In this document: one piece after another, positions 7,297 through 44,920 of the stretch | Position numbering within the stretch: the first letter of the stretch is position 1 | Layout of the letters: each line of letters opens with the position of its first letter | Source: an uncultured Acidobacteriota bacterium | Lineage (GTDB): Bacteria > Acidobacteriota > Terriglobia > UBA7540 | NCBI GenBank assembly: GCA_963804995.1 | Contig: CAWDSK010000003.1 | Location: forward strand, 128,001-192,000 | Direction of reading: 5' to 3' | DNA: 64,000 bases | The notes under the pieces: generated by a model | Seen by the model: only the letters and a program-made list of their open reading frames with translations | The model's database searches: none | What the model was told of the DNA's origin: nothing | Translations under genes and position numbers: made by a program

Positions 7297-8562
7297 ATGA
7301 GCGTTCAGGAATCCGAGAAGGAACTGAGTGTCTACGAATCCATGGCGGTCAGGTTTGATGTGGCGGCCCGCAAACTGGGGCTCGACGAGGGATTGTTGAA
7401 GTATCTTCGTACCCCTAACCGCGAGATCATCGTCCACATTCCCGTGGCTATGGACAACGGCACACTGGGAGTATTCGATGGCTACCGCGTCCAGCACAGC
7501 ATCGCGCGCGGTCCCTGCAAAGGAGGGCTTCGCTACTCCCCCCACGTCACGCTGGATGAGATTCGCGGGCTCGCCGCTGAAATGACCTGGAAGTGCGCAG
7601 TCGTGAACATTCCCTTTGGCGGCGCCAAGGGTGGGGTTGTGTGCGACCCCTCTAAACTCTCCCTCGGCGAACTGGAACGGATTACGCGGCGCTACACGGC
7701 GGAGATTCTGGACTATATCGGGCCGGAGCGTGACGTGCCGGCCCCCGACATGAACACCAACGAGCAAACCATGGCCTGGATCATGGATACCTACTCCATG
7801 CACGTCCGCCACACGGTGACGGCCAGCGTGACCGGCAAACCGCTCGACTTGGGTGGCTCCGCAGGACGCCGCGAGGCGACGGGCCGCGGCTGCATGATTA
7901 CGGCGGACCAGGCGTTGGCACGCTTCGGCTGGAAGCGGGAAAGCACGCGGGTTATCGTGCAAGGATTTGGCAACGTGGGGTCGCAAGCGGCTCGCCTGAT
8001 GCATGAAGCGGGCTACAAAATTATCGGCGTCGCGGACATCACCGGCGGCGTGTTCAACACCTCGGGCATTGATATCCCCAGCTTGCTGGTGTACGTCGGC
8101 GAACATCGCACGCTGAAGGGCTTCGCGGGCGGAGAAAGCATTGGAACCCATGAAATCCTGGAACAAGATTGCGAAGTCTTGGTGCCCGCCGCCACGGAAA
8201 GCGTCATCACCAGCAAGAATGCCCATAAAGTGAAGGCGAAACTTCTGGTGGAAGGCGCTAACAGCCCCACCACGCCTCCCGCCGATGCCATTCTGTTTGA
8301 GCGCGGCGTGTTCGTGATTCCCGATATTCTGGCCAATGCCGGGGGCGTCACGGTTTCCTATTTCGAATGGGTGCAGGACCGGCAGGGTTACTTCTGGCCG
8401 GAAGATACCGTAAATGAGCGAATGAAACATATTATGATCTCCGCTTTTAACGACGTTGTGAGCTACGCCGAAAAACATAACGTCAATAACCGCATTGCCG
8501 CCTACATGCTGGCTATCGATCGCGTGGCGTTTTCGATTAAGCTACGCGGGATTTACGCCTGA
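7297..8562 (+). CDS. gdhA: Glu/Leu/Phe/Val dehydrogenase (glutamate dehydrogenase)
   Basis: [37 protein letters not shown]. Confidence 0.93.
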
Positions 8563-8813
8563 GGTTGCCGCGTCAGAATCAAATGCCGCTTCCCACGTGT
8601 TGTAAGACATTCACCTCAAGTCGTGGCGCGGAACAGGAGGGAGGACCCGCATAGGCGTTAAAATAAGCGCCGAATTGCTCTCGCGAGATTAAGGTACATT
8701 TTTCGAAAACAAGCCCACGTTGCGGAAACTTCCCTGGGTAGGCGGCTGCACGTCAAACTGAGCACGCGCAATGTTTCGGGTGCTCTGCCAAGACTAATTT
8801 CCTCGAAGCGGAG

Positions 8814-8966
8814 GTTGAGCTCTTCGCTCCGCTGCGCGGCCTTAATCTGGATTTTGAGCGCGAAAGGGACACCGGCCGGGATATCAACCTGTGAAGGGCT
8901 ATGCGGAACGTCAAGGACTTCGCCGGCCTCGGCGTCGTTCTCCTCAACCCCTGGGACGAGGCGTGA
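8814..8966 (+). pseudogene. Collapsed antitoxin/vapC remnant
   Basis: VELFAPLRGLNLDFERERDTGRDINL* (antitoxin-like C-terminus) overlaps GTG-KGY, followed out of frame by RNVKDFAGLGVVLLNPWDEA* (PIN toxin C-terminus). Confidence 0.7.
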
Positions 8967-9010
8967 ATCTTCAGGCCGCGGCGCTGCATTTATAGTGCGC
9001 TCGGCCCTCC

Positions 9011-9036
9011 CCACTAACCACTAGCCACTAACCACT
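9011..9036. repeat. Heptamer tandem repeat CCACTAR
   Basis: ccactaa ccactag ccactaa ccact. Confidence 0.75.
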
Positions 9037-9170
9037 TTCCTCATGACTCCGGACAGTTCTTTGTGTCGCTCTTCAGGCATCATTGTTCTTATAGAGCATC
9101 CGGCTTGCAGTTGCGGTACACTAAGGATTGAGATGGCTGGATCAATGCTCGTGGTCACACGAATCGACTC

Positions 9171-9458
9171 ATGGAATTTGAATGGGACGCCAAGAAAGCA
9201 GATTCGAACGTTGCGAAGCACGGCGTCACGTTCTCAGAAGCGATGACGGTGTTTGGGGACCCGCTGGAACTCGCGATTGCCGATCCAGAACACTCGGAGG
9301 ACGAATTCCGATTTCTCAGTATGGGCCAGTCGGCAATGGGACGCCTACTTGTAGTCGCCTACACTGAGCGCGAAGGCCGAACCCGAATCATCAACGCCCG
9401 GGAAGCGACTCCCCGAGAGCGGAGACAGTATGAATCAACACGTTCACCAAAACGATAA
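9171..9458 (+). CDS. brnT: BrnT family toxin
   Basis: MEFEWDAKKA..N..KHGVTF.EA..VF.DP...RIINAR.AT. Confidence 0.92.
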   Translation: MEFEWDAKKADSNVAKHGVTFSEAMTVFGDPLELAIADPEHSEDEFRFLSMGQSAMGRLLVVAYTEREGRTRIINAREATPRERRQYESTRSPKR

Positions 9459-9732
9459 CGACGAAATGCGGCCCGAGTACGACTTCTCGCACGGCGTTCG
9501 CGGGAAGCACTATGAGGCATACCGCGCCGGTACGAATGTGGTGTTTCTCGATCCCGATGTGGCCAAAGCGTTCGCCGATTCAGCTTCAGTCAATCAAGCC
9601 TTGCGCCTGCTCTTGCAGCTTGCCCGCACGAGCGCTCCCTTAGACATCCAATCTGGCAAGACGGTGCAGCCGAGTAACCGTGCCCCGCGCCGCGCCAAGA
9701 AGCCCAAGCCCCTTCGCGCCACTCGCGGGTAG
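9430..9732 (+). CDS. BrnA-type antitoxin
   Basis: EMRPEYDFS.GVRGK...VFLDPDVAKAF....VNQALR; overlaps brnT. Confidence 0.85.
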   Translation: MNQHVHQNDNDEMRPEYDFSHGVRGKHYEAYRAGTNVVFLDPDVAKAFADSASVNQALRLLLQLARTSAPLDIQSGKTVQPSNRAPRRAKKPKPLRATRG

Positions 9733-9734
9733 GC

Positions 9735-9955
9735 GCAGCAGGCAGTCTTGAATCTTGAATCCCGTGTCCCGCCTCTGACACCCGGCACCTGTGTTAGGCA
9801 GTAGGCAGCGGGCAGTAGGCAGTTTTTCCTAGCCCCCTGACACCCGGCACCGGACACCTTGCACTTAGCCCCCGAATCCCGAGTTCCGCACCTGGCACCC
9901 GACACCTGATACCTGCTTTTTCTTTCTCGCCACTCGCCACTAACCACTGGCCACT
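9735..9955. repeat. Cluster of mixed heptamer repeats (GGCAGTA, CACCYGR, CCACTVR)
   Basis: Period-7 tandem tracts visible across the interval. Confidence 0.7.
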
Positions 9956-10320: not shown

Positions 10321-10857
10321 GTGAGATTGAAAGCTAAGGCGAAAGCGTCAGCCGCGGTCATAAGCAGAGACGGAAAATATCGTTACAAGCTGTCCAGGCG
10401 TTGGACTCCGGGAAGTGATCGTGCTGTCTGGATCATGCTAAATCCGAGTACAGCAGACGCGATAGAAGATGATGCTACGATTCGACGGTGCATTTCATTT
10501 GCCAAGCGCTGGGGCTGCGACGGGATTGAAGTGTACAATCTTTTCGCATTACGATCGCGCCATCCGATCAGAATTGAGATAGTCGAGGATCCGGTGGGAC
10601 CGGACAATGACCTTTGGCTAAGCGTTGCGGCACAAACTACAGGAAAAGTAATTGCAGCATGGGGTGCATGCAATACACCGTTACAGTTGAGAAGAGCGAA
10701 TAAGGTGATCGAGTTCCTTCTCCGCGACCGGCGTGTTTTCGTATCCACTCTGGGCCTTACAAAGGGTGGCCAACCTCGACATCCACTTTACGTCCGAAAC
10801 GACACACCATTAACTCCCCTCGTTCACCCCCTAGGATTTAGCAAACAGTATCGATAA
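10321..10857 (+). CDS. DUF1643 domain protein
   Basis: YRY.L.R.W, IMLNPSTAD..DDATIRRC..FA, NLFALR, AAWG, PRHPLY. Confidence 0.9.
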   Translation: MRLKAKAKASAAVISRDGKYRYKLSRRWTPGSDRAVWIMLNPSTADAIEDDATIRRCISFAKRWGCDGIEVYNLFALRSRHPIRIEIVEDPVGPDNDLWLSVAAQTTGKVIAAWGACNTPLQLRRANKVIEFLLRDRRVFVSTLGLTKGGQPRHPLYVRNDTPLTPLVHPLGFSKQYR

Positions 10858-10954: not shown

Positions 10955-11014
10955 ACAATATCTTACAAGTCCAAGATATTGTGCTTGACTTTCTTACAGT
11001 AATCGACGTAAGAT
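10955..11014 (+). promoter_or_regulatory. Promoter with two palindromic operators upstream of the six-gene operon
   Basis: ACAATATCTT-N8-AAGATATTGT (10955-10982); TTGACT-18-TAAGAT overlapped by TCTTAC-N10-GTAAGA (10992-11013). Confidence 0.65.
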
Positions 11015-11020
11015 TTGTTC

Positions 11021-11356
11021 ATGAATGCAGGAGAATTGACCCAAACACCGATTAAGACCCAACCCCAGGCAGTGCCAAGGATTGACCCTCTTGAGGTTCT
11101 GCGCGAGGTGCTCGAATTGCAACGCGAGAGTAGCCCGGAATTGGACGTCGAAGGGATGCTGGCCTTCGCGGTCGCAAATCCGACCACAGAAGTAGTGGAT
11201 TCGCTGGGCGCAGTAAGTATCGTTTGTGTTCTCTTCGGTGCGTACAAGCCTGACAATCTTATCCCGCAAAATCTTTTGACTCACGAGAACTTTAGCACGT
11301 TGAACGGACTAAGAAATGTTGTCAGAGAACTGAAGAAAAATCAAGGCAAACCATGA
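11021..11356 (+). CDS. Acyl-carrier-protein-like small protein
   Basis: VVDSLGAVSIV phosphopantetheine-site-like motif and C-terminal LTHENFSTL typical of ACPs; stop overlaps next ATG. Confidence 0.6.
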   Translation: MNAGELTQTPIKTQPQAVPRIDPLEVLREVLELQRESSPELDVEGMLAFAVANPTTEVVDSLGAVSIVCVLFGAYKPDNLIPQNLLTHENFSTLNGLRNVVRELKKNQGKP

Positions 11357-12327
11357 TGTCACCTGTTCGTTTAACCGATCTCACTCTGGAAATCACAAAT
11401 GCCTGCCATCATCGATGCGTGCATTGCAGTACGTATGGTGGGATACCTCGCGAAAACGAACTGACCCAAGATGAGCGACTCGATGTTTTGCGGCAAGCTT
11501 GCGCACTTGGTCTAATAGAGCTGCGCTTGCTTGGAGGGGAGCCGCTCTTACGCAAGGAAGACACATTCGAACTACTTGCGGAAGCCAATCGGCTTGGCGT
11601 GAAAAAAGCTCTGATATACACTTCTGCCGCTGAGAACGACTTTGGGTGGCTGACGACGTTACGCAACTTTGCTCCCATGGAAGTCTCCGCCGAAGCGAGT
11701 ATATACTCGGCGACGCAAGCAGTACACGATGGAATCACGGTAAAACCGCTCTCATTTGAGCGGCTACTCTCCAATTCCAAAGAGGCAGTGCAGGTCGGAT
11801 TCGATTTGAATTGGAACTTCGTTTGGATGAAACCGAATTTTTGGGAATTGGGACCTGTAATAGCACTAGCCTCGAAGATTGGTATTAGAAGAGTGCGGAT
11901 CCTGCGCTTAATGCTGAATGGGCGGGCGCGAGAAAACAGGGACACGTTGGAACTGCCGGCCGAAATGGAAATCCAGTGCGAGACGATTCTTAATTTGTTA
12001 ACCTCTCGCTATCCGGACGTTTTCATAGCTCATTCGAAACCACTTGTATTTCAGCTTGGGAGAAGCAACCACGATCATGTGGCTTCCTGCAGCGCCGGTA
12101 AAGGCCAGATTATCCTGCAGGCAGACGGTAGAGTCCTTCCTTGCATCGGGATGAAGGACACGCCGCAGCTTGAAATTGGAAATGTACGCATCGAAACTAT
12201 CGAAGACATTTTCTCACGCGCTCGCGGAATGAATTTCCCAGGAATGTCACAAGAGTATCGGGAATGTCCGGCGATCCAATTTCAAAAAACGCCAGAACTA
12301 ATCCAACTAACTCCAGGGAGGATTTAG
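11353..12327 (+). CDS. Radical SAM protein with SPASM/Twitch-like C-terminus
   Basis: CHHRCVHC (CxxxCxxC), GGEPLL, C-terminal CSAG...DGRVLPC...IGNV...ECP. Confidence 0.9.
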   Translation: MMSPVRLTDLTLEITNACHHRCVHCSTYGGIPRENELTQDERLDVLRQACALGLIELRLLGGEPLLRKEDTFELLAEANRLGVKKALIYTSAAENDFGWLTTLRNFAPMEVSAEASIYSATQAVHDGITVKPLSFERLLSNSKEAVQVGFDLNWNFVWMKPNFWELGPVIALASKIGIRRVRILRLMLNGRARENRDTLELPAEMEIQCETILNLLTSRYPDVFIAHSKPLVFQLGRSNHDHVASCSAGKGQIILQADGRVLPCIGMKDTPQLEIGNVRIETIEDIFSRARGMNFPGMSQEYRECPAIQFQKTPELIQLTPGRI

Positions 12328-12329
12328 GA

Positions 12330-12767
12330 ATGTCACCAAAGAGGGACATTGAACGTACGCTTAGCAGTGATCAGGAGCGTGCCTATCTTGCCCAGAAACT
12401 CAGAGAGGCTCGCGAGTACCTGGGACTGTCGCAGGAATACGTCTCGCAGCAAACGAATATGACGCGGCCGGCCATTTCTGAAGCAGAGGCTGGCAGACGG
12501 AAGGTCGAGAGTCTTGAACTAAAAAGACTAGCAACCCTCTATGGCCGCCCCCTTAATTATTTCTTGCCGGATCAAAATGGGATTGATCTCGACGGGTCTC
12601 GCGACGGGGTTTCCGAAAAAATAAATAGTGATCAGACCGAAATAAAACTACGAAACCTAACGAGGGACTTGCCATCCGAAGATAGGGAAGAGATTATCCG
12701 ATTCGCCGAATACTTGCGCCACAAGAAACAAGTGTCACAAACGCGCCGGGGCGTTGCTGCAAGATAG
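12330..12767 (+). CDS. XRE-family HTH transcriptional regulator
   Basis: LREAREYLGLSQE...ISEAEAGRRK; start moved to ATG 12330 after RBS. Confidence 0.9.
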   Translation: MSPKRDIERTLSSDQERAYLAQKLREAREYLGLSQEYVSQQTNMTRPAISEAEAGRRKVESLELKRLATLYGRPLNYFLPDQNGIDLDGSRDGVSEKINSDQTEIKLRNLTRDLPSEDREEIIRFAEYLRHKKQVSQTRRGVAAR

Positions 12768-12774
12768 GGATCCT

Positions 12775-13740
12775 ATGACTCGAGCCCAGTTGGTCACGGC
12801 TGCCAGCGGTGCAGCCTTGCTTGCCCATCGGAGGCACCATGTTGACCGCCAAAGGCGGATCGACGTGTTCGATATCCTCCGAGAGGTATCGAGCGAGGTT
12901 TTCTTTAGGCCGCTGCGAAAGGTGTGTGGTGCGTACCTTCCTAGTGACGGTCCTGTTCCTGCTGTCCTGATCAATTCGAATATGCCACTGAGTCGCCAAC
13001 GGTACACTGCTGCTCACGAGTTTGGCCATCTATTCTTAGGGCACAAAGTTGTAAGTCTTGATCAAGTAGTTGGCACCAGTTTTGAAGAACGTAAGAACTG
13101 GACCGATGAAGAGAACATCGCCGAAACGTTTGCTGCTTTCTTCTTAATGCCCCAGGGTTTAGTGGAGACCAGTCTACGTGAACTTAACGAAACGGAGATA
13201 ACCCCACAGACCGCTTACCTTCTGTCGCTGAAAATGGGCACTAGTTACTTGGCGACGGTCAATCACCTCCAAACTTTGAAGAAGCTGAATTATGCTGAGG
13301 CTGCCGAATTCCGAAAAATACAACCAAAAACGATAAAGGCGGAAATAATTCCCAGCGTTGCCAATAGGCACGACGTGTGGATTTTGGACGAGCGATGGAA
13401 TGATCAACCAATATACCCTGCGGTGGAGGACACGATTGTTGTTCGATTGGCTGAAACTCCCACTTCAGGGTATACGTGGGTTTGGCACAGGGACCCCGAA
13501 AGCCTTCGCGTCTTACAGGACGGATTCGCCGACGAACCCACACAGGAAATTGGGGGTGCCCGTGTACGCGAACTGGTAACGGAAGTATCGTCCGATGCCC
13601 ATGCTGAAAGAATCGATTTGGAACGGCGGCAACCGTGGGATGACAATGGCGAACCGTCAGCTCACTTCAGCGTGAATCTCTTCCCGCAGCAAATGAGGAA
13701 GAGCGGGCCTCTGGTCTTGCCGACGCTGGCCGCGAGCTGA
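12775..13740 (+). CDS. ImmA/IrrE metallopeptidase with C-terminal chagasin (I42)-like domain
   Basis: RQRYTAAHEFGH (HExxH), E..AETFAAFFLMP; C-terminal TIVVRLAETPTSGYTW...IGG...RRQPW resembles the I42 NPTTGYxW...GGG...RPW motifs. Confidence 0.85.
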   Translation: MTRAQLVTAASGAALLAHRRHHVDRQRRIDVFDILREVSSEVFFRPLRKVCGAYLPSDGPVPAVLINSNMPLSRQRYTAAHEFGHLFLGHKVVSLDQVVGTSFEERKNWTDEENIAETFAAFFLMPQGLVETSLRELNETEITPQTAYLLSLKMGTSYLATVNHLQTLKKLNYAEAAEFRKIQPKTIKAEIIPSVANRHDVWILDERWNDQPIYPAVEDTIVVRLAETPTSGYTWVWHRDPESLRVLQDGFADEPTQEIGGARVRELVTEVSSDAHAERIDLERRQPWDDNGEPSAHFSVNLFPQQMRKSGPLVLPTLAAS

Positions 13741-13743
13741 ATT

Positions 13744-14418
13744 ATGCACATAAGTGTTCGTGGTGCACAAACTGGCGTAAAAGACCAATATGACCGACCA
13801 ACATGTGTTGCTTTCGCGGTAACTGCTCTTCATGAGTACACCCACGACGTGTTGAAGGAGCTCAAAAAGGCGTCCGAGATCGACCTCTCTGAGGAATTTT
13901 TGTATTATCATTGCAAGCGACTTGACGGGTTAGGACCGAATTCCACTGGGACAACGATTTCGGCTGCTTCCACGTCACTTGCAGCGGATGGGCAATCCCT
14001 TGAGAGTTTGTGCCCGTACAAGGTGTCGTGCCCACCGGGGTTAATTACTCCCCCAGATCCCGGCGCTTTTGCTGATGGAAAAGCCCGGCGCCTCTTGGGC
14101 CTTCAGCAGCTAAACCTCTCCCTGTCGAGCATCCAGAACTCTCTCACTCTTTCGAAGCCAGTAATCGCAGTGTTGGATTGGTTTTCTAACGCGTATGTCA
14201 CCCAACTTGGCCGAATCGAAATTCCACGGACAACGGACCGCCTCCTTGGACGGCATGCCGTACTGATAGTTGAACTTGAAGAGGAGCCACGGGCTGGATT
14301 GTGCTTGATCACTTTCAAGAATTCTTGGGGTGCTAAATGGGGCGATAGCGGCTATGGTAGCTTCGGATTGGATTACTTCAGTGCATATGCGCGAGAAATC
14401 TGGGGAGTGAGCACCTAA
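13744..14418 (+). CDS. Papain-like (C1) cysteine peptidase, no signal or propeptide
   Basis: DQYDRPTCVAFA (Gln/Cys), LSEEFLY, RHAVLIV (His), KNSWGAKWGDSGYG (Asn). Confidence 0.9.
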   Translation: MHISVRGAQTGVKDQYDRPTCVAFAVTALHEYTHDVLKELKKASEIDLSEEFLYYHCKRLDGLGPNSTGTTISAASTSLAADGQSLESLCPYKVSCPPGLITPPDPGAFADGKARRLLGLQQLNLSLSSIQNSLTLSKPVIAVLDWFSNAYVTQLGRIEIPRTTDRLLGRHAVLIVELEEEPRAGLCLITFKNSWGAKWGDSGYGSFGLDYFSAYAREIWGVST

Positions 14419-14433
14419 AAGGAGAAGACCAAC

Positions 14434-15204
14434 TTGAGTAAGTTTTTTTCTTCGGCAACTTGCGCACATGCATGGGCCGACGCCATGGAGCACCTCATTG
14501 AATGTGAAGGGGGGAAGGATTTCAATCTTGTGATTGCGATCCAGAATCCGTGCGTTGAGATCCCAGAAGCAACGCGGGTTATAGATGAACTTGCTAAAGC
14601 CTGTGACCTAAAAGGCACGATGGAAAACGCAAACGCGATTTGGCCGTCGTTCTTCGCACGACCAAATAGGAAGAGCACTGAAGTGTTTGCTGACATTGAA
14701 CGCTTCGCGGTCCCGGCAATTAAGGCAGCGTGCAAGAATCGCCATGACTCCTATGTAGAGCGCCTAGTTGCTTGGCGAAGCGCAGATTCCAGCGAACCGG
14801 TTCCTCAGCTTCAGAACGTTTTGGCGCGACTTAAAAACGAGATTGGGAATCATGCCCCTAAGAGTTCGTCGTATGAAGTCTCAATTTATTCACCAGGTCT
14901 TGATGCGGGCTACATGAGTTTTCCATGTCTTTCTCACCTGTCCTTCAAATACGCTCACAATTGCGGCCTTCTTCATTTAACGGCCCTTTATCGGAATCAC
15001 GCCTACCTCAGCCACGCCTATGGAAATTTCATTGGATTGGGGAGGATGATGCAGTTTGCCTGCCGAGAGACGGGAACCCACCCAGGGGAACTCGTCTCAA
15101 TAAGCACCCACGCCGATTCAGAGATTGGTTCGGGGCGAAAATCTCGGACGCGTGAGGCGATTGTTCGCGTGAAGGAAATTTTATCCAAGCACCAGCAACC
15201 GTAG
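14434..15204 (+). CDS. Diverged thymidylate-synthase-fold protein
   Basis: FPCLSHLSF (catalytic PC), LTALYRNH...YGNFIGL aligning to ThyA QRSCD...PFN; TTG start after AGGAG. Confidence 0.7.
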   Translation: MSKFFSSATCAHAWADAMEHLIECEGGKDFNLVIAIQNPCVEIPEATRVIDELAKACDLKGTMENANAIWPSFFARPNRKSTEVFADIERFAVPAIKAACKNRHDSYVERLVAWRSADSSEPVPQLQNVLARLKNEIGNHAPKSSSYEVSIYSPGLDAGYMSFPCLSHLSFKYAHNCGLLHLTALYRNHAYLSHAYGNFIGLGRMMQFACRETGTHPGELVSISTHADSEIGSGRKSRTREAIVRVKEILSKHQQP

Positions 15205-15239
15205 CGCGGACCTGTTTTGCAGGTCCGCGGCTTTTTGTT
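15205..15239 (+). terminator. Intrinsic terminator closing the operon
   Basis: CGCGGACCTG-ttttg-CAGGTCCGCG 10-bp stem, then GCTTTTTGTT. Confidence 0.85.
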
Positions 15240-15554: not shown

Positions 15555-15782
15555 ATGACGATCACGGCAAAATATGAAGATGGCGTCTTCAAGCCCTTGG
15601 AGAACGTGCGCATCATCGAAGGGACGATAGTTGAGGTCCGCGTGCCCTCCGACGCCGGCCGTCCCGAGAACAAGGCGCAGTCGGTTGGGGATTTCGCCTT
15701 CTACGGCATGTGGAAGGACCGGACGGACATCGGTGACAGCGTGGAATACATCAGCAATCTCCGTCGTAATCTTCGGGGCTGA
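15555..15782 (+). CDS. AF2212/DUF104-like antitoxin
   Basis: MTITAKYEDGVFKPLE.V.I.EGT.VEV...FYGMWKDR.DI.DSVEYI. Confidence 0.8.
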   Translation: MTITAKYEDGVFKPLENVRIIEGTIVEVRVPSDAGRPENKAQSVGDFAFYGMWKDRTDIGDSVEYISNLRRNLRG

Positions 15783-15802
15783 AAGCTTCTTTCCAACTTT
15801 CC

Positions 15803-15845
15803 ATGCCTTACTTGATAGACAGCGATGTCCTGATTGACATATCAG
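15803..15845 (+). pseudogene. Truncated vapC (PIN) N-terminus
   Basis: MPYLIDSDVLIDIS PIN start motif downstream of an antitoxin; similarity is lost afterwards. Confidence 0.65.
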
Positions 15846-16225
15846 CGCCATCACGGGATTGCGCCTGGAAATTCCTGGTTACTAGCGCGACTTTGCCTTC
15901 CACCCTCCAAAACCGGTTAGTACCGCGCGGCGACGCCGCAACCAAAATCTTGGTCCAGGTCCAGGCCAAAGCGCCCAGACTTTCAGCTACACCGCGCCGC
16001 GAATTCCAAGCGATCCACCTGGCTGGTTAGACGCCAAGCCATGGACGTGCCCCGTGCACTCAAGCTCCCCGGGGTTCTGGGAATCAGCTCCTGGGTTGCC
16101 GCCCCAGCGTTTACCGATCCACGCAACTCTGGACGGTTGACGGGGGAAAACAAATCACCTGGCCGGTAACGGCAGGGGTGCGAGGCGCCTCCAGTCCGGC
16201 TTATTTTAACGCCTATGGAGGACCC

Positions 16226-18804: not shown

Positions 18805-19514
18805 CATAGGCGTTAACCTAAGAGTTCGATGCGTCCGAAAGCCCGCAAAGCGGGCGTAAGGTCGTAGCCCACTGCGTAAGCGGTGGGTAAAGAAATCGTG
18901 TAAAATTCCCGCCCAGCCCCGGAGGGGCGAAAGGACATGTCGCACACCTACACCAACCTGCTAACGCACGTTATTTTCAGCACCAAGTACCGCGAGCCAT
19001 TGATTACCTCGGCACTCCAAGACGATCTGCTCGGCTACGTGGGCGGAATTGTGCGCGAACTGGGCGGGGCGCTCCGGGCCGCGAACGCCCGACCGGACCA
19101 CGTGCACCTGCTCTGCTCGCTGCCGCCCACGGTTGGGACGGCGGACGCCTTGCGGGTCGTGAAGACCAATTCCTCACGTTGGCTACACCGCAGCCGGGGT
19201 TTTCCCCGATTCGACTGGCAAACCGGCTATGGAGCGTTCAGCGTCAGTCATTCCCTCGCACCCGCCGTTGTGCGGTACATTCGCGAGCAGGAGAAACACC
19301 ATCGCCGCGTAACGTTTCAGGAAGAATTCATAGACTTTCTGAAGAAGAACGGCATTGCGTATGATGAGCGCTACATTTGGGCGTGAATCCTTTCGCCCCT
19401 GGCGGGGCTTAGGGGAGAGAGGCGCGTCTTTTCCCACGGCTTACGCCGTGGGCTACGACCTTTCGCCCGCTTTGCGGGCTGTCAGCATTTCTGAGAGTTA
19501 GGTTAACGCCTATG
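18805..19514. mobile_element. TIR-bounded element enclosing an IS200-like tnpA and its palindromic ends
   Basis: CATAGGCGTTAACCTAA (18805-18821) and exact reverse complement (19498-19514); inner imperfect inverted arms 18840-18935 and 19388-19480. Confidence 0.8.
18937..19386 (+). CDS. tnpA: IS200/IS605-family Y1 transposase (REP-associated type)
   Basis: HVIFSTK.R, PDHVHL (HUH), WQTGYGAFSVS, YIREQEKHH. Confidence 0.92.
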   Translation: MSHTYTNLLTHVIFSTKYREPLITSALQDDLLGYVGGIVRELGGALRAANARPDHVHLLCSLPPTVGTADALRVVKTNSSRWLHRSRGFPRFDWQTGYGAFSVSHSLAPAVVRYIREQEKHHRRVTFQEEFIDFLKKNGIAYDERYIWA

Positions 19515-44825: not shown

Positions 44826-44920
44826 TGGCGGAAGTGTGTCGGAATCGAACCGACCGGTCCACCAAAGGCAGACCCACAGGATTTGAAGTCCCGGACGGAC
44901 ACCAGCCCGCATGCACTTCC
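44826..44920 (-). tRNA. selC: tRNA-Sec (anticodon UCA)
   Basis: 95 nt; 6-bp D stem with 4-nt loop, CTTCAAA anticodon loop, long variable arm, GGTTCGATTCC, GCCA end. Confidence 0.95.

Follow-up and report, generated by a model that had tools for sequence, protein, structure and literature searches.

A chagasin-type I42 domain fused to an M78 metallopeptidase as the predicted tethered inhibitor of a co-encoded, propeptide-less C1 peptidase

Why would a bacterial zinc metallopeptidase end in a domain that resembles the inhibitors of papain-like enzymes, and why is the gene that follows it that of a papain-like enzyme without a propeptide? This question is raised by a locus in a 64-kb stretch of DNA (the window; positions are on the + strand unless stated) on contig CAWDSK010000003.1 of an uncultured Acidobacteriota bacterium, whose genome assembly has 7.55 Mb and is 92% complete. 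The features at issue are the following:

12775..13359, + strand: M78 (ImmA/IrrE/CapP-type) zinc metallopeptidase domain plus helical linker, residues 1-195 (Pfam, PADLOC, fold)
13360..13740, + strand: chagasin-type I42 inhibitor domain, residues 196-321 (Pfam, Foldseek, loop conservation, predicted contacts)
13744..14418, + strand: propeptide-less, signal-less papain-family (C1) cysteine peptidase (Pfam PF00112, phmmer, spacing)

In our view the I42 domain probably inhibits the C1 peptidase while tethered to the metallopeptidase, and the two probably form an optional add-on to an XRE/M78 switch with a pyrimidine- or DNA-base-modifying cargo. The pairings of M78 peptidases with XRE regulators and of chagasins with papain-like enzymes are each established. 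What is new is a fusion that puts an inhibitor domain where an M78 sensor has its regulatory domain, a propeptide-less papain in the cytoplasm that is dedicated to it, and the location of the M78-I42/C1 pair at the head of clusters of the thymidylate synthase (TS)/MazG/5-hydroxymethyldeoxyuridine (5-hmdU)-kinase type in bacteria and plasmids.

Pfam, NCBIfam, PADLOC and PHROG profiles were applied to the proteins of the window, and Foldseek to their AlphaFold2 (AF2) models. The C-terminal part of the metallopeptidase (open reading frame (ORF) 12775-13740, TGA stop codon at 13738-13740) matched the family Inhibitor_I42 (PF09394; E-value 9.4e-10, 39.1 bits against a cut-off of 27.2) over residues 217-300. 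The original prediction, a reading of the bare sequence, had pointed to chagasin/I42-like motifs in this region, namely ETPTSGYTW, IGG and QPW, and the profile match, the loop alignment and the fold all bore it out. The motifs correspond to loops L2 (residues 227-235, 13453-13479), L4 (residues 259-261, 13549-13557) and L6 (residues 286-288, 13630-13638), and a phmmer alignment placed them on the matching loops of amoebiasin-2/EhICP2. Among 54 family members, G232 and W235 were invariant and G260 and W288 were conserved in at least 90%. The C-terminal domain was found to be Ig-like, superimposing on EhICP2 with a template modelling (TM) score of 0.87 and a root-mean-square deviation of 2.3 Å and on chagasin with a TM score of 0.81; the inhibitor of cysteine peptidases (ICP) of P. 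aeruginosa was also matched. The same fold is common to the solved structures 2nqd (chagasin-cathepsin L), 2oul (chagasin-falcipain), 3pnr (PbICP-C-falcipain-2), 3m86 (EhICP2) and 2wgn (P. aeruginosa ICP), with TM scores of 0.78-0.87. In IrrE, PprI and CapP, the place taken here by the I42 domain holds the regulatory C-terminal domain. M78 proteins of related loci that lack I42 keep a homologous beta domain (hhalign probability 95.4%, E-value 1.7e-8), and a gap of 7 residues in their alignment falls exactly at loop L2.

Just three nucleotides (ATT) separate the stop codon of this gene from the ATG of the C1 gene at 13744, whose ORF ends at 14418. The product matched Peptidase_C1 (PF00112; 9.8e-9, 36 bits against a cut-off of 20.7), and phmmer matched it to papain-family enzymes of plants and animals, among them dionain-1, ananain and cathepsin L. 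It had been predicted that this neighbor would be a C1 peptidase with intact Q/C/H/N residues and no propeptide, and ORFs, Pfam, residue conservation and gene spacing agree on this. Q15 (codon 13786-13788), C21 (13804-13806), H171 (14254-14256) and N193 (14320-14322), together with W195, were invariant in 40 of 40 aligned C1 homologues. In all 58 evaluable loci the codon of the catalytic Cys lay 54-129 nt (median 72) past the M78-I42 stop codon, the distance in the window being 64 nt, a stretch too short to encode a signal peptide or an I29-type propeptide. The enzyme does not have the layout of a typical C1A zymogen, that is, an N-terminal inhibitory propeptide plus a signal peptide, and export signals were absent from both the M78-I42 and the C1 proteins. 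Since its catalytic residues are all invariant, the C1 peptidase is expected to cleave some substrate once freed.

Synteny was evaluated in the best 80 (L001-L080) of at least 538 related loci confirmed in species-representative genomes, gene presence being scored with locally iterated profiles run on six-frame ORFs. The XRE gene was present in 78 of these loci, the I42 domain in 64, the C1 gene in 59 and the gene for a TS-fold protein in 71. A C1 gene accompanied the metallopeptidase in 59 of the 64 loci bearing the I42 domain, whereas it was found in none of the 16 loci lacking it, even with hmmsearch --max at E-values up to 10 (one of these loci ends at a contig edge just after the M78 gene). 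All 59 C1 genes lay immediately 3' of the I42-bearing M78 gene. Furthermore, the M78-I42 stop and the C1 start overlapped in 42 of 57 loci, the overlap being 4 nt long in 33 and 1 nt long in the other 9, which points to translational coupling of the two proteins.

A complex model, a check of the kind proposed with the original prediction, was built from the alignment of the C1 family and that of the I42 domain, in three runs and with 3 controls. It reached an ipSAE of 0.92 (0.93, 0.91 and 0.92 in the single runs) against 0.00 for the best control, a result that may reflect solved complexes of this kind; in a benchmark, 116 of 157 solved complexes score this high, as do 2 of 215 mismatched pairs, counts that apply only roughly here because own alignments were used for the model. 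The runs agreed in at least 94% of contacts, with a predicted local distance difference test score (pLDDT) of the partners of at least 86. The modelled interface comprised residues 15-22, 164-172 and 195-200 of C1, including Q15, C21, H171 and W195, and residues 31-39 (AETPTSGYT, L2), 60-68 (L4) and 89-94 (L6) of I42, in the numbering of the domain. The predicted binding mode is thus the canonical one, with the three chagasin loops inside the catalytic cleft.

Together, these four independent in silico lines, namely the conservation of the loops, the occurrence of C1 only in company of the I42 loops, the translational coupling and the complex model, led us to regard the action of the I42 domain on the adjoining C1 peptidase, both binding and inhibition, as well supported in silico. 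The earlier proposal had been that the metallopeptidase restrains the papain or is switched by it; the part of it that is supported is that the I42 domain acts on C1, and the direction of control is weighed below.

The metallopeptidase itself appears to be a conserved enzyme. Its N-terminal part matched Peptidase_M78 (PF06114; 3e-10, 40.4 bits against a cut-off of 22) over residues 42-136, as did all 79 locus homologues that were tested. The zinc motif HEFGH lies at 13015-13029 and E113 is a putative third ligand; H81, E82, H85 and E113, which make up the HExxH motif plus a downstream Glu, were invariant in 54 family sequences. The full-length AF2 model had a pLDDT of 89.9 and a predicted TM score (pTM) of 0.88, and Foldseek matched its N-terminal fold to IrrE (3dti), CapP (7t5t) and PprI (8sln). 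The XRE gene was located directly 5' of the M78 gene in 78 of the 80 loci, the other two ending at contig edges. Among the PADLOC models, capP matched the M78 part (1.3e-17) and capH matched the XRE protein (1.2e-5 over residues 42-152). By analogy with such systems, the M78 peptidase would cleave the adjoining XRE repressor upon a stress signal. Other assignments were discarded: PADLOC also offered PDC-M69B (9.4e-15) and RmrA for the M78 protein, but the matching partners are absent at this locus, and the operon contains no genes (CD-NTase plus effector) of the cyclic-oligonucleotide-based anti-phage signaling system (CBASS), the resemblance to CapH/CapP being one at the profile level only. 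The C1 and TS-fold proteins did not match any PADLOC defence model.

The core of the cassette is made up of the XRE repressor, M78-I42, C1 and the TS-fold enzyme, the I42/C1 pair being an optional add-on. In the window, the remaining features of the operon and its surroundings are:

10321..10857, + strand: DUF1643 protein (Pfam PF07799 2.8e-39; PHROG 3230 5.6e-54)
10955..11014, + strand: candidate operator and promoter of the operon (inverted repeat, then a sigma-70-like site)
11015..11356, + strand: 113-aa small protein with a VDSLG motif (without Pfam match)
11353..12327, + strand: radical SAM/SPASM enzyme (Pfam Radical_SAM 2.7e-13, SPASM 9.4e-6)
12264..12767, + strand: XRE-family HTH repressor, CapH/DdrO/ImmR-like (Pfam HTH_3 8.5e-10; PADLOC capH)
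14434..15204, + strand: 256-aa thymidylate-synthase-fold enzyme (AF2, Foldseek; without Pfam match)
15205..15229, + strand: intrinsic-terminator-like hairpin (11-bp stem with 8 GC pairs, T tail)

The last gene of the operon starts with TTG, just after an AAGGAG sequence. The AF2 model of its product (pLDDT 94.1) matched ThyA, the phage dCMP hydroxylase AfhB and the CMP hydroxymethylase MilA with a Foldseek probability of 1.00 and E-values of about 2e-9, and its neighbors in the protein atlas are named thymidylate synthase family. Its match to NCBIfam TIGR03283 (1.3e-9, 37.9 bits) stayed below the cut-off of 174.55. Residues C165, R187 and N198 are invariant and were profile-aligned to the catalytic Cys (PC(H)), the QRS Arg and the base-reading Asn (FN) of ThyA, and most other ligand residues of ThyA were not matched. 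Judged by its predicted structure, the 256-aa protein is a divergent thymidylate-synthase-fold enzyme. Its gene is the most constant cargo (71 of the 80 loci) and is kept where I42 and C1 are missing.

Further cargo genes flank the cassette in the related loci: a MazG pyrophosphatase with MazG_C (PF18722) in 53 of the 80, and a 5-hmdU-DNA-kinase-like protein with HMUDK_hel (PF18723) in 55; this kinase (5-HMUDK) was reportedly first predicted by Iyer et al. in 2013. A protein of about 110 aa with a conserved DS motif is encoded just 5' of XRE in 32 loci, and a 4'-phosphopantetheinyl transferase in 32; dCTP deaminase (8 loci) and uracil-DNA glycosylase (UDG; 6 loci) complete the set. From this gene content, bacterial chromosomes and plasmids seem to encode an inducible pathway akin to thymidine modification, and the DS-motif protein plus phosphopantetheinyl transferase hint at a carrier-protein-dependent step. 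Loci with such flanking genes include L006, L011, L020, L037-L039, L063 and others (for example L039:9446-10570 and L037:8373-10364), and examples of the DS-motif and phosphopantetheinyl transferase genes are L039:5154-5528, L073:5127-5762, L038:10344-10742 and L039:4489-5139. In some Planctomycetota two of the flanking genes are fused into one that encodes a 650-aa protein. The cassette of the gammaproteobacterial locus L017 is decaying, a DDE transposase gene (8154-9305) splitting MazG (7631-8149) from the remainder of MazG_C (9437-9790). A local profile seeded with a 752-aa metallophosphatase was discarded, as it had drifted onto the TS-fold genes.

Several observations weigh against the explanation we favor or limit what it can claim. 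Complexes of chagasins with papain-type enzymes have been solved (2nqd, 2oul, 3pnr), and the high score of our complex model may derive from them, which would show likeness, not binding of this copy. The I42-less loci all belong to Actinomycetota. On the best M78 tree the loss of I42 amounts to 3 changes, only 1 of which is forced by well-supported branches, so the co-occurrence of I42 and C1 rests on 1-3 independent events; a test of independent pairs on this tree had 1-3 usable pairs, putting significance out of reach. Five loci bear the I42 domain and have no C1 gene: L028, L044 and L045, all three from Pseudonocardiales, L046, which keeps a C-terminal remnant of C1 (E-value 2e-5), and L064, in which the I42 domain is weak. 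The I42 domain can thus outlast its C1 neighbor, at least for some time. If the two proteins are always produced 1:1 and chagasins bind tightly, an active C1 is difficult to account for. As for the cargo, the TS-fold protein of the window did not match PF00303 at E-values up to 0.1 and falls outside the curated ThyA families, and it had no relative in 50,697 phage records. HMUDK_hel is absent from the window and from the whole window genome (92% complete), and MazG_C is absent from that genome as well; because of this, the 5-hmdU context of the window cassette is borrowed from its relatives.

With these points in mind, the mechanism that we propose is as follows. The C1 peptidase would have its inhibitor built into the protein encoded just before it, where the I42 domain, tethered to M78, stands in for the missing propeptide. 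C1, translated in step with M78-I42, would be caught at birth, the loops ETPTSGYTW, IGG and QPW filling its catalytic cleft, so that metalloprotease and cysteine protease would be held together 1:1 in the cytoplasm, the latter in a latent state. As the I42 domain stands where IrrE, PprI and CapP have their regulatory domain, the two proteases are likely coupled in their states. A signal such as DNA damage, single-stranded DNA or an invader would activate M78, as in ImmR/ImmA, DdrO/IrrE and CapH/CapP, and the active M78 would cleave the XRE repressor and thereby de-repress the operon. The operon would be a module for the modification of pyrimidines or DNA bases that has spread by horizontal transfer, on plasmids too, and its enzyme set is probably of the defence type. 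Because C1 and I42 can be missing while the enzymatic genes stay, we read C1 as regulatory or as an additional effector and not as a chemical step. What the analysis shows is the identity of the domains, the conserved active sites, the synteny, the co-occurrence, the absence of C1 where loop L2 is lost and the predicted interface. The inhibition itself, the cleavage of XRE, the trigger, the role of C1 as a released effector or as a gate and the direction of control are all points that we infer.

A more ambitious version, which we put forward only tentatively and hold to be rather doubtful, is a relay of two proteases in control of an immune or conflict system that is inducible and mobile and modifies DNA or nucleotides. 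Upon an invader or DNA-damage signal, M78, whose chagasin domain had kept C1 latent, would remove XRE and at the same time alter its hold on C1; C1 would make the switch irreversible or serve as a second effector; and the TS-fold, MazG and 5-hmdU-kinase-like enzymes would poison or re-mark replicating DNA. If true, the pair would be the first in bacteria in which a cytoplasmic chagasin domain is directed at an endogenous papain, and I42 the first protease-inhibitor domain found to act as the regulatory domain of an M78 switch.

The same pair of proteins could be arranged differently. One alternative, in our opinion an unlikely one, is a three-part toxin-antitoxin-regulator module, with C1 as a toxin or abortive-infection effector and M78-I42 as its antitoxin; the fusion would merely secure co-expression, C1 would be released once M78-I42, the less stable of the two, has been degraded or is outnumbered, and M78 catalysis would have no direct role. 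Pairs of COG2856 and XRE proteins are often classed as type II toxin-antitoxin-like, tight translational coupling is typical of toxin-antitoxin pairs, and the catalytic residues of C1 are invariant. In further support of this idea, the M78 part resembles the NCBIfam family 'spr1629 family repressor/antitoxin' (2.8e-8, far below its cut-off), and the island in which the cassette lies is flanked by BrnT (9171-9458) and AF2212-like (15555-15782) genes. However, the active site of M78 is also invariant and XRE is found in 78 of the 80 loci, which implies that M78 has a conserved job of its own. The joint loss of C1 and I42 from cassettes that keep the rest suits an accessory regulator as well as a toxin-antitoxin pair.

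Control could also run in the reverse direction, C1 being a regulatory subunit or sensor and the occupancy of the I42 loops setting the activity of M78 on XRE, so that, for example, loss, modification or oxidation of the catalytic Cys of C1, or the displacement of C1 by an invader protein, would turn M78 on. The location of the I42 domain, in the regulatory C-terminal position of IrrE, PprI and CapP, the confident arrangement of the domains in the full-length model (pTM 0.88), and the fact that I42-less members keep the scaffold of the domain without its binding loop, which suggests that the scaffold matters to M78, are all in line with this view. Against it, the Q/C/H/N/W set is invariant in 40 of 40 C1 homologues, which argues that C1 still cleaves something, and we give reversed control little credence.

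An enzymatic role for C1 was also considered and seems to us very improbable: as an acyl transferase, aminoacyl transferase or thioesterase, C1 would act upon the phosphopantetheinylated carrier protein of the cluster in the making of a base modification, and I42 would only time its activity. The idea draws on the DS-motif small protein 5' of XRE and the phosphopantetheinyl transferase, each in 32 of the 80 loci, and on the ability of papain-type residues to form acyl-thioester intermediates, as known from general enzymology. Nevertheless, 16 I42-less and five I42-bearing loci have no C1, and most of them keep the TS-fold, MazG, kinase-like and carrier-like genes; in 8 loci XRE, TS, MazG, HMUDK and the small protein are all found without C1, implying that C1 is dispensable for the chemistry. 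A canonical protein inhibitor, moreover, suits a protease best. Finally, that the I42 domain targets foreign C1 peptidases of a phage, predator or host, with the adjacency of C1 being incidental, is scarcely credible even though the chagasin-family inhibitors known from bacteria belong to the envelope or cell surface and have host enzymes as their supposed targets, since C1 occurs in 59 of 64 against 0 of 16 loci, in every case right after the M78 gene and in most with an overlap of stop and start codons, export signals are absent from both proteins, and only 1 of 50,697 phage records has a relative of C1.

The tethered inhibition of C1 by the I42 domain, as we propose it, has elements of three known arrangements. 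With chagasin and the other ICPs the I42 domain of the window shares the three loop motifs and the predicted binding of the cleft by L2, L4 and L6; unlike it, the known members are free-standing and small, and many are exported or aimed at the enzymes of other organisms, whereas the I42 domain of the window forms the C-terminal end of a metalloprotease in the cytoplasm and is likely directed at the co-translated, propeptide-less C1 peptidase of the same cell. With IrrE(PprI)/DdrO of Deinococcus, ImmA/ImmR of ICEBs1 and phage phi105, and CapP/CapH of CBASS, the locus has in common an M78 domain with XRE upstream, but it replaces the C-terminal regulatory domain with an inhibitor domain and adds a second protease. 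The genes controlled also differ, being those for DNA repair, excision of an integrative and conjugative element (ICE) and CBASS in the former, and presumably TS-fold and nucleotide- or DNA-modification genes in the present family. In I29 propeptide zymogens a co-made polypeptide likewise blocks the cleft until activation; here, however, the blocker is a separate domain on another enzyme, of unrelated fold, and is expected to be a reversible canonical inhibitor, so that activation could not consist in the autocatalytic removal of a propeptide.

The closest described counterpart of the cargo is DS-4 ('NTTI') of DefensePredictor, a validated anti-phage system in E. coli (PMC13092281). According to Table S8 of that work, DS-4 comprises a bona fide PF00303 TS, a dNMP kinase, HMUDK_hel, an NDT/TIR-like protein and Nmad2 (PMC13092281). 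HMUDK_hel is also found in 55 of our 80 related loci, but DS-4, as given there, has no XRE, M78, I42 or C1 (PMC13092281), and its TS belongs to PF00303 while the TS-fold protein of the window forms a separate clade without phage relatives. Entries for I42 and Peptidase_C1 are absent from the supplementary tables of PMC13092281. The gene set of the related loci also resembles the thymidine-hypermodification pathways of phages (PMC5889632, PMC8989533), and the pertinent passages of these two papers contain no peptidase, papain or MazG. Intracellular prokaryotic C1A peptidases are noted in PMC10380794, chagasin not being mentioned in the corresponding section, and Cpi1 of Pseudomonas is described as an outer-membrane lipoprotein and chagasin-family inhibitor (10.64898/2026.06.02.729523). 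A search of the full-text literature found no description linking chagasin/I42 to M78 or to this cassette; the study of Iyer et al. 2013, which may cover bacterial neighborhoods, was outside this search.

How far does this architecture extend? A word-indexed search yielded 92 clusters at 90% identity, nearly all with both Pfam domains, and an exhaustive profile search of 1.84 billion representatives yielded 776 proteins (50%-identity clusters) at E-values up to 1e-30, the best 150 of which all span the whole two-domain profile. The related loci come from Acidobacteriota, Actinomycetota, Chloroflexota, Pseudomonadota, Planctomycetota, Armatimonadota, Deinococcota, Nitrospirota, Myxococcota and other phyla. 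Since the phyla are mixed on the M78 tree, the tree indicates that the cassette has spread by horizontal transfer. A relative was present in 27 plasmid records, over at least 80% of its length in 16 of them, and 15 were conjugative. Two unrelated plasmids carry the same order of genes: dCTP deaminase, small protein, HTH, ImmA/IrrE, C1 family peptidase and a hypothetical (TS-fold) protein, followed by convergent UDG and MazG genes. An origin in phages was rejected, as the 50,697 phage records gave one partial match to M78 only, none to the TS-fold protein and one to C1.

Bacterial chagasins have hitherto been seen as exported tools against foreign proteases, and M78/XRE pairs as single-protease sensors; the M78-I42 family joins both and provides a simple model for the wiring of one protease to another. 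The M78-I42/C1 pair is, in addition, an unstudied regulatory head of clusters of the TS/MazG/5-hmdU-kinase type, a class recently tied to phage defence (PMC13092281). Should the cargo make modified pyrimidines on demand in cellular or plasmid DNA, the hypermodification chemistry known from phages would extend to bacteria.

In the window, the genes between 11015 and 15204 are tightly spaced on one strand (+), and the terminator-like hairpin at 15205-15229 follows directly 3' of the TS-fold gene. A perfect 10-nt inverted repeat (10955-10964/10973-10982) lies just 5' of the sigma-70-like site at 10985-11014. The TTGACTTTC.TACA block of the promoter and upstream half-sites of the GTAAGA/TCTTAC type are kept in 5 aligned acidobacterial sequences, those of the window and its four closest relatives, and the -35 block is conserved in these relatives; the promoter consensus scan as a whole was not above chance (5 sites against 4.5 expected). 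The XRE gene may start at the ATG at 12330, right after the stop codon of the radical SAM gene.

The DUF1643 gene, the gene for the 113-aa protein and the radical SAM/SPASM gene make up a variant of the cassette common to the four closest relatives. DUF1643 is next to the cassette in 4 of the 80 loci (L001-L004), the closest relatives only, and its link to the cassette is uncertain. On the plasmids an annotated UDG adjoins the cassette instead of DUF1643; pairwise comparison of the two proteins revealed no similarity (BLASTP E-value 0.34). The radical SAM/SPASM gene, located between the 113-aa gene and XRE, was found in 7 of the 80 loci (L001-L004, L008, L058 and L064), and all maturase-type matches of its product in NCBIfam were far below their cut-offs. 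The 113-aa protein has homologues in 5 of the 80 loci; its membership in the widespread DS-motif family of about 110 aa was not established (hhalign probability 15%, E-value 0.0017, centred on the DS motif). A lead from the atlas, a cluster of the acyl carrier protein (ACP) family with a score of 0.90 at rank 10, makes it possibly an acyl- or peptidyl-carrier-like protein. Genes for a phosphopantetheinyl transferase were not found in the window.

The GC content is 50-53% at 10-16 kb and 58-60% around it, and the neighbors are the housekeeping genes polA, lpxC and gdh as well as rpe and a deoC-like gene. On one flank there is a BrnT toxin gene (9171-9458) followed by an ORF of 100 aa (region 9171-9732), and on the other an AF2212-like small-protein gene (15555-15782) and then an ORF of 75 aa without Pfam match (region 15555-16030). 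Given its low GC and its housekeeping and toxin-antitoxin flanks, the 10-16 kb region looks like an acquired island.

Among the listed matches for the sampled words of the window there was no RNA run, and five DNA metagenome runs shared small fractions (0.05-0.11) of these words. A gene for an IS200/Y1-type transposase (18937-19386) is located a few kb downstream of the island, and the sole tRNA gene of the window is that of tRNA-Sec (anticodon TCA), at 44826-44920 on the - strand.

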